Part shown: positions 2 to 50,718 of the stretch, one piece after another
Numbering within the stretch: the first letter of the stretch is position 1
How the letters are laid out: each line of letters opens with the position of its first letter
Assembly: GCA_029778565.1 (NCBI GenBank)
Contig: JAKOQC010000249.1
Coordinates: 45,611 to 109,610 of the forward strand
DNA from: a bacterium
Lineage (GTDB): Bacteria; Patescibacteriota; Saccharimonadia; CAILAD01; BJGX01
Length of the DNA stretch: 64,000 bases
Direction of reading: 5' to 3'
Translations under genes and position numbers: made by a program
The notes under the pieces: generated by a model
Seen by the model: the letters and a program-made list of their open reading frames with translations, nothing else
Told to the model about the DNA's origin: nothing
Database searches by the model: none

Positions 2-1036
2 GCAGCTTTATTTGTACCAATCGTAAAACGCTTCGCCTTTAAGGTAGGAGCGGTTGATAAGCCAAGTAAGATTGCTCGTAAAATACATACCAAAACGATG
101 GCCAGGGGTGGGGGAATTGCAATCTTTTTAAGCTTTCTCATTGTTAATTTAGCCCTTATAGGTCTCCACTGGTGGCAGTTTTGGGGTTTAATTGTGGCTT
201 CTACTATTGTAATGGCAGTTGGATTGCTTGATGATATTAAACGTTTGCCTGCAACAACTAAGCTGATAGTTCAAATTCTGGCCGCATTTGTAGCCATTTT
301 TGTATTTGGCATTCAGATAGAAGGCCTTTCAAATCCATTTACGCAAGGTGTGTTAGCATTCGACCCACATATAACTTTTGCGTTATTGCACCATACTATC
401 CAAATTAATATAATTGCTGTAATTATTACAACTATTTGGCTTGTTGGAATGACCAATACTATGAATTTTGTTGATGGAATAGATGGTCTTTCTGGTGGTG
501 TGGCAGCAATTGCAGCCTTTGTTATGTTTGCTCTGGCTATCGGGCCAAAAGTAGACCAGCCTCAAACCGCAGTAGTGGCGATTGTTTTGACTGGTGGTTG
601 TCTAGGGTATTTGATTTACAATTTTCATCCTGCCAAGATTTTTAATGGTGATTCAGGAGCGTATTTCTTGGGTATGGCACTGGGTATTCTGGCTATCTTT
701 TCGGGTGCTAAGCTAGCTACCGCTGCACTTGTACTTGGCGTGCCAATAATAGACGCTACCTGGGCGGCCTTACGACGTATTCTGCAAGGTCGCTCTCCGT
801 TTAGCGCCGATAGGGGGCATTTACATCATCTCTTACTTGATGTTGGTCTCTCGCAGCGTCAGGCAGCGCTGCTAATATACGCACTTTGTGCCATATTTGG
901 CGGTATTGCACTTATTGCATCACCAGAACAAAAACTTGTGGCTATCTTCTCACTCATAGTTTTAATTATGCTGTTATTCTTGCTACTTACACTCTTGCGC
1001 CGCCGGAAGAATCAGAATAAAAACCAGCTTACGTAA
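2..1036 (+). CDS. WecA/TagO-family polyprenyl-phosphate HexNAc-1-phosphate transferase (MraY/WecA superfamily); 5' end runs off the window
   Basis: Frame is open from nt 2 (AALFVPIVKRFAFKVGAVDKPSKIARKIHTKTMARGGG...), so the ATG at 98 is internal. Motifs RKIHxxxxxRxGGIAIF, LLDDIKRL and NTMNFVDGIDGL plus ~10 hydrophobic helices are typical of WecA/TagO transferases. Confidence 0.7.
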   Translation, partial: AALFVPIVKRFAFKVGAVDKPSKIARKIHTKTMARGGGIAIFLSFLIVNLALIGLHWWQFWGLIVASTIVMAVGLLDDIKRLPATTKLIVQILAAFVAIFVFGIQIEGLSNPFTQGVLAFDPHITFALLHHTIQINIIAVIITTIWLVGMTNTMNFVDGIDGLSGGVAAIAAFVMFALAIGPKVDQPQTAVVAIVLTGGCLGYLIYNFHPAKIFNGDSGAYFLGMALGILAIFSGAKLATAALVLGVPIIDATWAALRRILQGRSPFSADRGHLHHLLLDVGLSQRQAALLIYALCAIFGGIALIASPEQKLVAIFSLIVLIMLLFLLLTLLRRRKNQNKNQLT

Positions 1037-4035: not shown

Positions 4036-4112
4036 GGGTCCTTAGCTCAGTTGGCTAGAGCGCTTCCTTGACGTGGAAGAGGTCAGAGGTTCAAGTCCCC
4101 TAGGACCCACCA
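4036..4112 (+). tRNA. tRNA-Val (anticodon GAC)
   Basis: Cloverleaf by eye: acceptor GGGTCCT/AGGACCC, D arm GCTC-AGTTGGCTA-GAGC, anticodon stem CTTCC/GGAAG with loop TTGACGT (U33, anticodon GAC), T loop TTCAAGT, discriminator A and encoded CCA. One A.C mismatch in the T stem and G37 are slightly unusual. Confidence 0.7.
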
Positions 4113-17599: not shown

Positions 17600-18064
17600 G
17601 TGAGTTAGCGCACAATCGCTCGTTTTTTACGAGAGGAAAGTCCGAACAGCACAGAGTACAGTAGTTGCTAACGGCAACCTAGGGTAACCTACGGGAAAGT
17701 GCCGCAGAAACTATACCGCCCCTCACCATATCACTTGAGTTACGAGTGATATGGTGAGGGGTAAGGGTGAAAAGAGTGTCCTCGCTTGCGAGGAGTAAGT
17801 TTTAATCACACAGTGATCAATATTTACAGGTAAGAGCTCACAATCTTAGTTGGTGACAATTAAGAGTTGGTAAACCCTGCTGGCTGCAAGATTAATGGAT
17901 CCTTCTACATATTGTAGACAAGTTACTCGCTTGAGAAATAGGATATATCGCATGATCCCACGCCATCTGATGGTGCGGGACGCCCGGAAACGGGAAGATA
18001 GATGATTGTGGTCTCTCACTATGCAATGGTGAGAGATACAGAATTCGGCTTATAACTAACTCAC
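17600..18064 (+). ncRNA. rnpB: RNase P RNA (bacterial type)
   Basis: P4 strands GAGAGGAAAGUCCGAAC (17631-) and ACAGAAUUCGGCUUAUAA (18036-) with compensatory pairing CCGAA/UUCGG. P1 GUGAGUUAG (17600-17608) pairs with CUAACUCAC (18056-18064). No ORF on either strand. Confidence 0.85.
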
Positions 18065-18068
18065 ACCA

Positions 18069-33351: not shown

Positions 33352-33751
33352 GGGGCTGTATTAGCTTTGACATATGGAACTTTGAAAAATATTCGCAAGC
33401 CGGGCCGGAATGCACGTTAGCCGTTCCAAAACACTTTAAGTGCCAATACACTTATTAGCAAGGTAAAGGCTGCTTTTGCAGCTCCTAGCCTTGCGCCAGC
33501 ATTTGCCTAATACGCTATGCCGCTTACTACCCAGACACCAGATAGGGTAACAAGCGTCGATTATCTGGATGCGGTCTTACCACCTCTCTGGGCGAGATCT
33601 AAGTAAAAATAAAGAGAGCAAGCAACTTGAGCGCTCTTGTCGGTTTTTTACACTCTTGGGGCTTGTAAAATCCCTTTAGAATCGACTATGCTTGAAGACG
33701 ATATTTTTTCAAACCGTATGGACGCGGGGGCAGAACCCGCCAGCTCCACCA
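33352..33751 (+). ncRNA. ssrA: tmRNA (SsrA)
   Basis: 5' GGGGCUG pairs with 3' CAGCUCC-A-CCA including the G3.U70 alanine identity pair. 3' end GGACGCGGG...CCCGCCAGCUCCACCA is near-identical to canonical tmRNA. TTGACA-17 nt-TAAAAT promoter at 33313-33341. No ORF. Candidate tag reading frame ...AAFAAPSLAPAFA-UAA at about 33453-33497. T loop (GGCAGAA) is atypical. Confidence 0.75.
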
Positions 33752-47916: not shown

Positions 47917-47982
47917 GATATAATTTAGAGTATGAATCCCGTTAGAAAAACTTTCGGGATAGAAAGGGTATTCTAACGGGAT
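47917..47982 (+). promoter_or_regulatory. trpS promoter (extended -10 TGaTATAAT) and leader hairpin occluding the SD and AUG
   Basis: TGATATAAT at 47917-47925. 12-bp inverted repeat ATCCCGTTAGAA (47936-47947)/TTCTAACGGGAT (47971-47982) with inner CTTTC/GAAAG stem. The GAAAGGG SD and the AT of the ATG start lie inside the stem. Confidence 0.4.
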
Positions 47983-48964
47983 GAAAACAGTATTTTCAGG
48001 ACTAAAACCAAGTGGTGATATGACAATCGGCAACTATCTTGGAGCAATGAAAAACTGGCCTTATCAGCAGGGTCTAGCTAGAACAATCTTCTTTGTACCC
48101 AATGCACATGCTATAACTGTTCGCCAAGACCCTACAGAACTAAAAAAACGAACATATGATTTAGTAGCTTGGTTGATTACTGTTGGTTTAGATCCAAAGA
48201 AATCGATAATTCTTGTTCAGTCTAAAGTACCAGCTCATGCCGAGTTGTGTTGGATTCTCGATAACTACGTTACAATGGGCGAGCTCAGTAGAATGACCGA
48301 ATATAAAGATAAGTCACAAAAACTTGGCCCCGAAGGACAGTTAGTCGGCCTGTTTAACTACCCAGTATTAATGGCAGCAGATATTTTGCTTTACGATGCC
48401 AATGAAGTACCTGTAGGAGAAGATCAGAGACAGCATCTAGAGCTGGCACGTACGATTGCTGAGAGATTTAACCGTCTTTATGGTAATACCTTTGTTTTAC
48501 CCAAGGCAACAATTCCCAAAACTGGCGCTCGCATAATGGGTCTTGATGATCCTACTAAGAAAATGAGTAAGAGCGATCATCCTGATAGCTTTATTATGCT
48601 TGCCGAAACAGCTGATAGTATACGTAAGAAAATTAAACGGGCTGTTACTGATTCAGACAATAGAATAATTTATGACAAAAAGGGTAAACCAGCAGTTTCT
48701 AATTTAATAGAGATATATGCAGGCTTTAGCGATGAAACAATCTCTGTTATCGAAAAGCGGTTTGTAGGTAAAGGCTATGGCGAGTTCAAGGCAGAGCTAG
48801 CAGAGCTAGTGGTAGAGAAGTTATCTCAATTACAGGCCGAGTTTTATAAAATTCGCGATAATGAGGCAATGTTAGACAAAGTAATAGACTCGGGAAGTGC
48901 TAAAGCTGCCGAAATTGCGAACGAAAAGCTACGTGAAGTTAAAGAAAAAATTGGTTTATTGTAA
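47981..48964 (+). CDS. trpS: tryptophanyl-tRNA synthetase
   Basis: SGLKPSGDMTIGNYLGA (TIGN form of HIGH), KMSKS at TKKMSKSD. Length typical of bacterial TrpRS. Confidence 0.9.
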   Translation: MKTVFSGLKPSGDMTIGNYLGAMKNWPYQQGLARTIFFVPNAHAITVRQDPTELKKRTYDLVAWLITVGLDPKKSIILVQSKVPAHAELCWILDNYVTMGELSRMTEYKDKSQKLGPEGQLVGLFNYPVLMAADILLYDANEVPVGEDQRQHLELARTIAERFNRLYGNTFVLPKATIPKTGARIMGLDDPTKKMSKSDHPDSFIMLAETADSIRKKIKRAVTDSDNRIIYDKKGKPAVSNLIEIYAGFSDETISVIEKRFVGKGYGEFKAELAELVVEKLSQLQAEFYKIRDNEAMLDKVIDSGSAKAAEIANEKLREVKEKIGLL

Positions 48965-49017
48965 AATATACCACGTACTCTAACAGGTATAGATGTAATA
49001 AATACGTTAAAAAGCAT

Positions 49018-49596
49018 TGACATTAGCATAAGCGTTTGCTACAATAGTCTTAACATTGTTCTTTCAAATAAAAATAAAAACCAACACAAAAACCATGCCA
49101 CAAATTCTTTACGCATTCTATGACGATACTTGATCTCTATAAAAGTATCTCTATTTAAACCAATTTCAACCTAATACGGTAGGGGAAGTCTGGCTCATAA
49201 AAGGCAGCCCCCTTGCTTTTTATAGCCAGTTTTTCCCTACTGTTCGAGGGGCAAACTAAGATAGTAATTTCTGCTGTTCTGTTAAGTTATTTGTACCTTG
49301 TCTATCTTCACCCGAAGGAGTCGGCTAGGACTTGCTCTCTAATTCTTTGGAGCGCGAATCCTGGCCGGTCTGCCATACGGATGGTTGGGAAGTCGTCAAC
49401 CGTGTATTTCAGTAATTGATGCATATATGCGCCTTGACAGCTTACAACGGCTACTTTCGGTTCTGCTGAGAGTTGGCCTTCGGGCCAGCGTGTGCCATTT
49501 AGTTAATTCTATTAAGGGCAGATACGTTGGCCCGTAACCAAATTTTGTTGAAAAGTAACCACTTTACTGCCAGTAGGGTGGTTTTTTATTTGTTTT
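49018..49596 (+). ncRNA. candidate ~540-nt noncoding transcript of unknown identity (consensus promoter to intrinsic terminator, no ORF over 68 aa)
   Basis: TTGACA-17 nt-TACAAT at 49018-49046. Terminator CCACUUUACU-GCCA-AGUAGGGUGG + U6 at about 49562-49596. Internal long imperfect hairpin 49181-49253 (GUAGGGGAAG...CUUUUUAUAGCCAGUUUUUCCCUAC) and a GGCC-UUCG-GGCC tetraloop hairpin at 49473-49484. Confidence 0.25.
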
Positions 49597-49640
49597 CGTG
49601 ATAGTATACCTTAGTAAATTGTACCTGGAGGTAAGTCAGT

Positions 49641-49985
49641 ATGCCTACAAAGCTTACACATGGTGCTTATACAAGAGATAGTAAGTATGAGGTTGTGCAG
49701 CATCGCTATGCTGCTTCTGGGTTTGCTGCTTATGTAGAGTGCTTAGAGGTAGTAAACCCACCTGATGGTATGCCTAGGTATATTATTCACTGGTATTACA
49801 TAAAGGATGCGGTTTTCTCAGGGGATCATAGCTGGTATTTCTCTTCATTAAGTGCAGCTCAAAAAGCTTGGGATAAGTTTTGGAGACAATCTCAAAGTGA
49901 ACCTAAGGAACGGTTTAAAAATCAAGAAGGATTTATTTATTATGAATACAATAGCAGCGATTCTCCATGGTATTACGTAAAGTAA
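49641..49985 (+). CDS. hypothetical Trp/Tyr-rich protein
   Basis: ORF with GGAGG RBS. No family. Confidence 0.3.
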   Translation: MPTKLTHGAYTRDSKYEVVQHRYAASGFAAYVECLEVVNPPDGMPRYIIHWYYIKDAVFSGDHSWYFSSLSAAQKAWDKFWRQSQSEPKERFKNQEGFIYYEYNSSDSPWYYVK

Positions 49986-50319
49986 CCCTAACCCTGTGTT
50001 AGGGTATTTTTTATTGTTATTAATTTTTGACATAATAATAGGCAACTTATGCACAATATCCACAAGCCGAGCTAAAAGTGTTCGGTTTTTTACAAATTAC
50101 ATAATTATTTAATTTAGCTCGCTCAAGCATTACACAAATTGAACTGCAAAATAGAATTTACAAAATATTACAACACTAGTCTTAAGAATAAAATAAGTAT
50201 TCATTAGCATTTTCTAGTATCACAAAATAAAAAATGTATGCAATATTGAATAGATTATTTGATCAAATAGCATAATTTGATGGAAATGCTCTAAACCAGT
50301 ACAATAGAAGGTACAAATT

Positions 50320-50718
50320 ATGCTTTCACAACGTTCTGTCATACTACTTTCTATATTTGGGCTCGTTTTTTCATTTATTATCTCTACTCTAGGGGTGGTA
50401 TATGCCTTATTTACGTATACGCCTGCTAAATTGGGTCCAGCGGGTATTACTTTTTGGTTTATTGGCATACTAATAAGTGTAGGAAGTGTTATAGCTTTGC
50501 TTGGTTTCTTGTGGAAGTTACGTCACGAAGAACATCGTTTGACCGCTGCAAAGGCACTTACTAGCTCTTTGCGTACAGGTTTCTTGGTGGGTTTTACGGT
50601 ATCGATTTTATTGGCTCTCTCGAGTTTGAGAAGCCTAAGTATTCGTGATATTATCTTATTTATTCTTGTAGTAGTGGTAATAGAAATCTATTTTCGTACC
50701 AGAAAGAAAAGAGTATGA
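50320..50718 (+). CDS. hypothetical membrane protein (3-4 TM)
   Basis: Hydrophobic ORF overlapping the pheS start by 4 nt. Confidence 0.3.
   Translation: MLSQRSVILLSIFGLVFSFIISTLGVVYALFTYTPAKLGPAGITFWFIGILISVGSVIALLGFLWKLRHEEHRLTAAKALTSSLRTGFLVGFTVSILLALSSLRSLSIRDIILFILVVVVIEIYFRTRKKRV

Follow-up and report, generated by a model that had tools for sequence, protein, structure and literature searches.

A conserved and very probably new structured RNA at a fixed position downstream of trpS in Candidatus Saccharibacteria

The window analysed here is a 64-kb stretch of contig JAKOQC010000249.1, and the element in question is a gap on its + strand at 48965-49640. This gap lies between trpS (47981-48964, +) and an open reading frame (ORF) of 114 aa (49641-49985, +). 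As claimed in an earlier note made from the sequence of the gap (hereafter, the original prediction), it is free of sizeable ORFs: the longest ones touching it, in any frame, measure 68 aa (49213-49419, +), 61 aa (48844-49029, -; lying for the most part opposite the end of trpS), 50 aa and 38 aa. GC content reaches 0.52 at 49300-49499 versus about 0.38 in the flanks. Judged by its signals, the segment 49017-49596 (+) is a self-contained transcription unit with a consensus promoter, an RNA of about 545 nt and an intrinsic terminator. We conclude that this unit is very probably a conserved structured RNA gene of a new family. The RNA is found at one fixed position in a broad set of Candidatus Saccharibacteria. 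The original prediction had noted a promoter, hairpins and a terminator in an ORF-free gap, and this observation was confirmed. Its interpretations, taken together, were partly supported: the reading as a novel structured or small RNA was strengthened (own conserved promoter and terminator, covarying helices, no Rfam match, and conservation above that of the flanking genes in close relatives), while neither a leader of the 114-aa protein nor a gene remnant agreed with the comparison of homologs described below.

The comparison started from TrpRS homologs named Candidatus Saccharibacteria; contigs encoding graded TrpRS homologs provided the loci L081-L093. In every one of these, 600-1000 nt 3′ of trpS are free of genes, and the alignment shows the RNA in all. 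Another 28 loci were retrieved from JGI metagenomes with a pattern built from the invariant 3′ blocks of the RNA, whereas 11 loci were found through TrpRS or the 114-aa ORF without the pattern being imposed. The unit is conserved with covariation across about 40 loci. A TrpRS motif search of genome contigs returned generic class-I motifs in Firmicutes and Actinobacteria at 44-53% identity and gave no synteny information. The sole IMG/VR match (L122), obtained with a looser pattern, was rejected as a chance match in GC-rich coding DNA. According to a tblastn map of all loci, the gene order is throughout rmuC, trpS, the RNA, a variable slot, a membrane protein of 125-133 aa, pheS and pheT. The contrast outside Saccharibacteria is given by two TrpRS homologs (58-59% identity) from diderm bacteria, in which trpS abuts uppS without a gap. 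The homolog alignment consists of a near-unchanged promoter followed by invariant blocks alternating with variable hairpins. Identity of the RNA to that of the window is 98% in L083 and 92% in L084, both close relatives, versus 79-86% for trpS, rmuC, pheS and the membrane-protein gene.

The predicted features of the transcription unit are as follows.

49017-49045, +: promoter, with -35 element TTGACA (49017-49022), 17-nt spacer and extended -10 element of TG plus TACAAT (49040-49045); 11 of 12 matches to sigma-70
49052-49094, +: 5′ leader, with invariant GUUC (49058-49061) and an A-rich tract of AAAAAN repeats (49066-49094)
49095-49133, +: possible mini-ORF encoding MPQILYAFYDDT and a stop; invariant AUGCCAC (49095-49101), stop codon UGA (49131-49133) in the P1 loop
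49125-49149, +: hairpin P1, stem 49125-49131 with 49143-49149, in the minimum free energy (MFE) fold; loop motif (U/A)G(A/U)(A/U)CUC, here UGAUCUC (49131-49137)
49177-49242, +: hairpin H1, lower stem 49177-49186/49233-49242, upper stem 49190-49207/49213-49229 (CUGG/CCAG plus A/U-rich)
49232-49245, +: 5′ strand of helix LR, UUUCCCUACUGUUC, overlapping the 3′ arm of H1 by 11 nt
49246-49320, +: junction segment, with conserved (G/U)AG(G/A) (49246-49249), Hv and a small CC-N3/4-GG hairpin (49311-49318)
49258-49308, +: variable hairpin Hv, stem 49258-49264/49302-49308; loop UUUGYACCUU in clade A
49321-49368, +: hairpin H2, outer stem 49321-49330/49359-49368, inner stem 49333-49341/49348-49356
49379-49392, +: 3′ strand of helix LR, GGAUGGUUGGGAAG (UGGU-GGGAA), more invariant than any other block of the RNA
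49393-49440, +: domain H3, outer stem GUCAA/UUGAC (49395-49399/49434-49438), inner stem and small hairpin GCAUAUAUGC (49421-49430)
49453-49473, +: hairpin H4, stem 49454-49460/49466-49472; 7 pairs, 5 of them changed on both sides, 88% paired
49481-49540, +: hairpin H5 and tail, CGGGCCAGC (49481-49489) with GUUGGCCCG (49526-49534), inner UGCC/GGCA, apical 3-bp helix, tail UAACCA (49535-49540)
49557-49596, +: intrinsic terminator, 12-bp stem (49557-49583), then UUUUUUAUUUGUUUU, with a U-run that ends TTTTTTATTTGTTTT at 49596

The promoter described in the original prediction as TTGACA-17-TACAAT is real, although it lies at 49017-49045 and not, one base further on, at 49018-49046. Of 32 loci whose sequence extends far enough upstream, 29 carry the motif TTGACATAAGCATAAGC-N-TG(C/A)TA(C/T)A(A/C)T, in one copy per locus; the exceptions were L095, L103 and L104 (variant). 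In L083 and L084 the promoter is 100% identical to that of the window, compared with 81-83% for the upstream intergenic DNA. The spacer, conserved as well (ATAAGCATAAGC...TGCTA), harbours the inverted repeat AGCA(T)-N7/8-(A)TGCT. In the window and its homologs the spacer (49023-49039) is as conserved as the hexamers, that of L095 being different, and the repeat takes the form AGCA-N8-TGCT in clade A and AGCAT-N7-ATGCT in clade B. It could be an operator for a dimeric repressor. From the spacing to the -10 element, the RNA is predicted to start near 49052.

At the other end, the strong terminator of the original prediction was recovered, and a hairpin followed by a U-run, of differing sequence, is present in all 26 homologs that reach this position. 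No conserved competing partner was found for the 5′ arm of the terminator, the best partner being weak and differently placed in each homolog; therefore, the terminator is probably constitutive. The -35 element marks the upstream limit of conservation, and ACCA plus the terminator the downstream limit; between the UAACCA tail and the terminator conservation collapses. A conserved promoter and a conserved intrinsic terminator of its own, with conservation confined between the two, are what characterizes a stand-alone non-coding RNA gene. The two ends also show complementarity to each other. The 5′ A-tract (49066-49085) is complementary to the 3′ U-tail (49578-49596; 19 nt, 79%), and the invariant GCCAC of the leader is complementary to GUGG(U/C) of the terminator 3′ arm in most homologs (49098-49101 with 49579-49583 in the window). 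Terminators of the CCAC.../...GUGG type recur in clades A and B beyond the expectation of free drift. These complementarities may reflect an interaction between the 5′ and 3′ ends.

The segment 49052-49596 (+) has an MFE of -188 kcal/mol, compared with -133 +/- 6 kcal/mol for dinucleotide shuffles (z = -8.9; 0 of 100 shuffles as good), whereas the - strand of the same segment gave a z of only -2.7. RNAalifold, applied to a MAFFT alignment of 22 sequences (A5), predicted 77 pairs, 31 of which showed compensatory changes. When a curated structure of 70 pairs was scored on the same alignment, 96.9% of the cells were paired, compared with 38-48% when partners were slid by 1-3 columns; 31 of the 70 pairs had double changes, and the covariation score was 0.44 against about 0.09, values reached by 0 of 500 shuffles. 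Base pairing is thus maintained by compensatory change beyond the controls, as in structured RNAs, although in few independent lineages. The comparison shows a multi-domain fold (P1, H1, Hv, H2, H3, H4 and H5) kept by compensatory substitutions.

Support differs among the helices. The best supported one is H2, in which 17 of 19 pairs changed on both sides (94.5% paired). In H5, 6 of 18 pairs changed on both sides and 99.7-100% were paired. H1, present in the MFE fold of all 27 homologs, has an upper stem that is 100% paired with 11 of 16 pairs never varying, a lower stem that is 97.7% paired with a GC to AU exchange at 49182/49237, and an apical loop of invariant CCCCC (49208-49212). Its conserved limits are 49177-49242, so that the long hairpin of the original prediction exists but not with the limits given there (49181-49253). 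Since the MAFFT alignment was unreliable at P1, Hv and H3, these were judged by folding homologs one by one, and all three refold at equivalent places with different sequences. P1 with its loop motif was found in 12 of 12 folded homologs with differing stem sequences, Hv in each of them with a length and sequence that differ between the clades, and the nested architecture of H3 in 10 of 12 with other sequences (CAAUCGC/GCGAUUG in clade B). A GGCC-UUCG-GGCC tetraloop hairpin, also described originally, is present at 49475-49486 but restricted to the lineage of the window. It is not the conserved fold, because the 3′ half of the tetraloop hairpin, CGGGCC (49481-49486), forms the 5′ arm of H5 with GGCCCG (49529-49534) in every homolog.

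The unpaired or loop elements that do not vary include the GGCCCGUAACCA tail, UGGU-GGGAA, AUGCCAC and the CCCCC loop. No sequence departs from GGCCCGTAACCA, which the search pattern for the 28 metagenome loci contained but which was not imposed on the 11 others. A covariance model of H4, H5 and the tail (R1) matched each Saccharibacteria locus once, at 79-96 bits, and matched neither the rest of the 64-kb window nor about 40 trpS loci from other phyla. Two other structural candidates were considered. The upper hairpin of H1 with its U-tract is unlikely to be an internal terminator, its G/C stem being only 4 bp, and kissing of the P1 loop with the 5′ GUUC or the H4 region was rejected because no covariation was seen. 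The Hv loop AGUUAUUUGUACCU (49285-49298) recurs at 86% identity as AGUAAAUUGUACCUGGAGG (49613-49626), just upstream of the ribosome-binding site of the 114-aa ORF.

The RNA belongs to no Rfam 15 family and is new at the level of RNA families, although its mechanism could prove familiar in kind. All 4227 covariance models of Rfam 15 were run on the window and on 12 homolog loci, and no model reached its gathering score in 48965-49640 or anywhere in the 12 loci. The scan works on this genome: it found RNase P RNA of class A (198 bits, 17600-18068), tmRNA (95 bits, 33352-33751) and a tRNA (4036-4109), which are three other stable RNA genes within the 64 kb. With the threshold relaxed to E<=10, the region and its homologs gave only microRNA and snoRNA noise, with different models for each locus. 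The original prediction had likewise been unable to match the RNA to a known class. No description of a large RNA of Saccharibacteria was found in the literature outside subscription-only papers, and the sole TM7-specific motif we met, lysM-TM7, is an unrelated motif of 5′ untranslated regions.

Other identities were considered individually. ARAGORN predicted 0 tRNA or tmRNA genes in 48000-50500. The T-box sequence GGUGGNACCGCG, an antiterminator and a Stem I specifier loop are all absent, and the T-box model RF00230 misses the RNA. A ACGGAUGG motif in the window resembles the CsrA-type GGA consensus, but the GGA is not conserved (CGAUGG, GAGUGG and GGGCGG in homologs), and this identity was rejected. 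A possible likeness of GAAGUCGU-AAC, GUAACC and GUAGGGGAA to the 3′ end of 16S rRNA was unsupported: the 9-mer is specific to the lineage of the window, clade B lacks the 8-mer, and no local match at E<=10 came from the Rfam small-subunit rRNA models.

A helix search on an alignment of 32 sequences revealed a further helix, LR, at the core of the RNA. LR is a 14-nt complementarity with one UxU mismatch between 49232-49245 and 49379-49392; 29 or more of 30 sequences can pair at 13 of these positions. Its compensatory changes are CG to GC at 49245/49379, outside H1, CG/UG/UA at 49244/49380 and at 49237/49387, and UxU to UA at 49238/49386. When each helix is scored alone, the paired fraction is 93% for LR (31-61% after sliding) and 98% for the lower stem of H1 (36-65% after sliding). 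The two helices share a strand with an overlap of 11 nt and are therefore mutually exclusive. In each of the 27 homologs, a fold forced to contain LR is 8-23 kcal/mol less favourable than the H1 state, so LR would need tertiary contacts or a partner. The conservation of two mutually exclusive helices suggests a switch, although the evidence is not conclusive. A further helix, between strand 3 (49379-49392; UGGUU) and the AACCA tail (3:4), was rejected as uncompensated in L099, which has C at 49382, and in L092.

Taken as a whole, the reading that we consider probable, with moderate confidence, is a stand-alone structured RNA that acts in trans, has a bistable core and is followed by cargo expressed through read-through; confidence in the trans-acting role and in the switch is much lower than in the RNA gene itself. 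The product would be a strongly expressed and stable non-coding RNA with a role in trans, whether that of a ribonucleoprotein scaffold, of a riboregulator or of a sensor. The 114-aa ORF, purD and guaA, which occupy the slot behind it in some loci, would be hitch-hikers expressed by read-through from the RNA promoter. In the core, the pyrimidine-rich strand 49232-49245 would pair with the upstream purine strand and complete H1; alternatively, it would pair with 49379-49392 and close a four-way junction round Hv, the small hairpin and H2, in which residues left unpaired are conserved. The H1 state would form first and would be the more stable one alone; therefore, the junction state would be populated only with a partner (a ligand, a protein or another RNA), which would constitute the step of sensing or regulation. 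If the mini-ORF of 5-15 codons at the invariant AUG is translated, the transcript would have a dual function.

Several points weigh against this interpretation. The start, ends and stability of the transcript are deduced from sequence only, and the role in trans is argued by exclusion. A scan of the ribosome-binding sites of the window for G-rich complements of the CCCCC loop gave nothing convincing, nearly all G-runs lying within coding sequence. Purine genes have been inserted twice independently (purD and guaA) right behind the terminator, which could indicate regulation in cis. The competing helices singly have modest support, with double changes at 3 pairs and 1 pair. The junction state, 8-23 kcal/mol less stable by nearest-neighbour energy, may never form, and the 3′ strand of LR resembles the 5′ arm of H1 (CGGUAGGGGAAGUC vs CGGAUGGUUGGGAAGUC), so that part of the dual complementarity may stem from this likeness. 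The two-clade phylogeny inflates the number of covariation cells, independent compensatory events being far fewer than cell counts. Finally, invariance of the 3′ domain was partly imposed, since 28 loci were retrieved by a pattern made from that domain.

The contents of the slot downstream of the RNA bear on whether the RNA is instead a cis-regulatory leader, one that senses a metabolite, a protein or translation status and sets terminator read-through into the 114-aa ORF, purD, guaA or the operon of the membrane protein, pheS and pheT. We regard this as unlikely. The slot holds the 114-aa ORF in the window, L083 and L096; purD in L084, L085 and L117; both in L114 and the contig of P0018; guaA in L087; and a T-box-led gene pair in L113. 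In the majority of loci it holds no gene but 310-660 nt of AT-rich DNA, and the RNA is equally conserved there. The original prediction had suggested an unusually long leader for the 114-aa protein; because the ORF is confined to a few lineages and the downstream neighbour varies, the RNA is not a leader for this ORF. Neither is there a constant downstream gene or pathway of the kind expected of a riboswitch: the genes lack a common function, the cargo of L113 has a T-box of its own, and about 500 nt far exceeds the size of known riboswitches. Nor was an expression platform, i.e. an alternative pairing with the terminator or a ribosome-binding site, recognized, the 5′ arm of the terminator having no conserved antiterminator partner.

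What speaks best for regulation in cis is that purine genes were acquired independently at least twice (purD in L084, L085, L114 and L117; guaA in L087) at 14-18 nt behind the terminator. Cargo genes in general begin 14-53 nt past the U-run, which leaves no room for promoters of their own, as is evident for purD and guaA in L084 (5604-5621), L085 (5586-5601), L117 and L087 (5590-5608). Saccharibacteria are said to lack de novo nucleotide synthesis. Lone purine-pathway genes at one spot, purD acquired at least once and guaA independently, are odd. The RNA is always co-oriented with the downstream operon, its mutually exclusive conserved helices are typical of switches, and the Pro-Pro-stop of its 5′ mini-ORF resembles regulatory leader peptides. 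However, a distance of 165-350 nt separates the alternative helices from the terminator downstream, with which they have no connection. A leader-peptide attenuator fits no better: a short ORF and 1:2/2:3 alternatives exist, but strand 3 does not pair with the terminator, which lies 165 nt away. The membrane-protein/pheS/pheT operon moreover is preceded by a conserved region of its own and, in the window, by a promoter-like site at 50027.

Further observations were made on the slot. The cargo-less spacers (L089 5568-6000, L091 6569-6917, L092 6578-6918 and about 20 others) are ORF-free, have a GC content of 0.20-0.37, are large for compact genomes and are conserved solely in the last 80-100 nt before the membrane-protein gene. 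That these post-terminator spacers are decayed cargo genes was rejected: tblastn at E<=1 found no remnants of neighbouring or cargo genes in them or in the RNA. The 114-aa ORF (window 49641-49985; L083 1950-2294; L096; L114) is Trp/Tyr-rich. A word-index search of 5.8 billion proteins gave only one homolog cluster for it, and its copies found by tblastn (46-83% identity) all lie directly downstream of the RNA. Neither this ORF nor the 132-aa membrane protein matched Pfam or NCBIfam. The second promoter-like site of the window, TTGACATAATAATAGGCAACTTATGCACAAT, is located at 50027-50055, after the terminator of the 114-aa gene (49985-50005) and upstream of the membrane-protein/pheS/pheT operon. 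In L114 (WBZU01001468.1) the promoter is identical to that of the window and pheS and the membrane protein are 89-92% identical, while identity falls to 56% for TrpRS; in this close relative, a divergent allele has apparently taken the place of trpS. In L113, a T-box with the canonical GGUGGUACCGCG follows the RNA terminator at 575-762 (+) and precedes ORFs of 211 aa and 240 aa, a further kind of cargo; its score for RF00230 (34.5 bits, local E = 4e-6) is below the Rfam threshold.

Another explanation, doubtful as the main one yet compatible with a stand-alone RNA acting in trans, is that the transcript is a small-protein mRNA or dual-function RNA: a micro-peptide starting at AUG 49095, or the act of its translation (e.g. 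stalling at Pro-Pro-stop), would be the main function or would control the fold. The product would begin with MPH and be 7 aa long, ending in KPP, in one clade and 12-15 aa long in the other. The invariant AUGCCAC follows an unstructured A-rich tract, and GTTC-TT plus this A-tract of 25-35 nt is present in all full-length homologs. In clade B the frame and length are kept and the mini-ORF always reads MPH(I/T/L/A)(N)KPP or MPYKIPP before the stop; third-position changes are all synonymous (ATA/ATT/ATC, AAA/AAG, CCT/CCA and CCA/CCG), and the stop varies between TAA and TAG. An RNA-level constraint could, however, mimic codon conservation here, since CCWCCR-UAR lies just 5′ of the P1 stem. The mini-ORFs of clade A, of 5-15 aa, share only their start (MPH or MPQ), although several end in D-(D/S)-(P/T)-UGA at the conserved UGA of the P1 loop; that of L085 is only 5 codons long. 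Chance ORFs in AT-rich sequence have lengths of this order (5-15 codons), and no Shine-Dalgarno motif precedes the AUG. Such motifs are not universal in the genome: a Shine-Dalgarno-like motif was counted before only 14 of the 43 long ORFs in the window (a crude count with a first-ATG approximation), and initiation without one may be common. Translation of the mini-ORF is thus possible, yet it would leave about 400 nt of covarying structure downstream unexplained.

That the RNA is a highly diverged form of a known housekeeping RNA which Rfam models miss in this phylum, e.g. a 6S/Ms1-like RNA that binds RNA polymerase, is improbable. It shares with 6S and Ms1 RNAs an abundant-type promoter, conservation across the lineage and a conserved alternative pairing, and 6S RNAs undergo a conserved structural rearrangement. 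The RNA is universal in the sampled lineage and evolves more slowly than protein genes in close relatives. RNAs of the 6S type are known to escape sequence-based detection and are reported to have been found in Actinobacteria by synteny (PMC9130861), as was the RNA described here. Against this stand the lack of any Rfam match even at E<=10, while RNase P RNA and tmRNA of the same genome give 198 and 95 bits, and the absence of a tRNA-like or tmRNA-like domain according to ARAGORN. The 6S rod of about 180 nt, with its closing stem and central bubble, is replaced by a branched multi-domain fold of 490-545 nt, two to three times the size of 6S, that has no central bubble, no 5′-3′ closing stem supported by covariation and no covariance-model similarity. 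The weakest explanation, a decayed protein gene or neutral spacer with fortuitous hairpins, has next to no chance: the 68-aa and 50-aa ORFs inside the gap match nothing in Pfam and are not conserved, no frame is, indels are non-triplet and substitutions preserve base pairs but not codons, no residual protein similarity was detected by Pfam, alignment or tblastn against neighbouring genes, and the segment is more conserved than its flanking genes in close relatives.

The RNA may be compared with several known systems. Like OLE, ROOL, GOLLD, the raiA motif and HEARO, it is several hundred nt long with many covarying helices and invariant loops or junctions, occupies a long intergenic region where GC content exceeds that of the otherwise AT-rich genome, is restricted to one lineage, and has a function that is not evident from neighbouring genes. 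The Rfam models of these five all fail to match it. The three-dimensional structures of OLE, ROOL and GOLLD have been studied by cryo-EM. ROOL and GOLLD lie beside tRNAs or prophage genes, unlike this RNA, and HEARO is associated with a nuclease ORF that is absent here. The present RNA differs from all of them in being single-copy, at one syntenic chromosomal site, with an A-rich leader and a possible mini-ORF. With Staphylococcus aureus RNAIII, SR1 and SgrS it has in common a length of about 500 nt, its own promoter and terminator, a short 5′ ORF, many hairpins and a C-rich apical loop. In low-GC bacteria, C-rich apical loops of this kind pair with Shine-Dalgarno regions. However, there is no homology to these RNAs, no target was found, the mini-ORF of 5-15 codons is putative, and structure is conserved across deep divergence far more than in usual base-pairing small RNAs.

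The Salmonella mgtA and mgtCBR leaders and leader-peptide attenuators resemble the RNA in having a long 5′ RNA, a very short ORF that includes proline codons, and alternative helices with one strand in common, only one of which can form at a time. In the mgtA and mgtCBR leaders the helices decide on termination or Rho access before one gene, whereas here there is neither a constant gene nor a link between helices and terminator. With T-box leaders the RNA shares the location between two aminoacyl-tRNA synthetase genes, the terminator and the invariant UGGU and ACCA, but the T-box sequence, specifier loop and antiterminator that define them are lacking, and the T-box of L113 serves as an internal positive control.

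A bolder version of the trans-acting interpretation can be put forward only tentatively. The RNA would represent an undescribed class of large RNAs (about 0.5 kb) that is fixed and probably essential in Saccharibacteria, acting as a trans ribonucleoprotein, a sensor or a ribozyme gated by the two-state core, and it may have a processed 3′ end and a micro-ORF. If the 3′ end were processed at the invariant ...GGCCCG-UAACCA, giving a minihelix that carries an NCCA-like tail, and the micro-ORF were translated, this RNA between trpS and pheST would be tied to translation or to the biology of tRNA.

Saccharibacteria live as epibionts of ultra-small size, and their genomes span roughly 1 Mb or less and contain hardly any non-coding DNA; one contig carrying the locus is a single piece of 652 kb. 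In the sampled lineages the RNA is always present, in the same place, and evolves more slowly than the aminoacyl-tRNA synthetase genes in close relatives. Because it is kept, fixed and slowly evolving in such compact genomes, the RNA likely does something central. The large bacterial RNAs RNase P RNA, tmRNA, group I and II introns and OLE are ribozymes or cores of ribonucleoproteins, and to our knowledge almost nothing is known on RNA-based functions in the candidate phyla radiation. A new RNA class from this radiation would offer structural biologists and geneticists a concrete target. Two papers report that some Saccharibacteria can be co-cultured and describe gene targeting in them (PMC7651992, PMC11623550), and genetic work would be feasible in this way provided that the RNA occurs in those strains. 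The pair of exclusive helices offers a directly testable hypothesis of a switch. For annotation, GGCCCGUAACCA plus UGGU-GGGAA is a marker motif for finding the RNA, and the 114-aa ORF, purD and guaA behind it may be treated as putative read-through passengers. A large, deeply conserved and possibly bistable RNA in bacteria with minimal genomes would be of interest to biologists of RNA and of Saccharibacteria alike.

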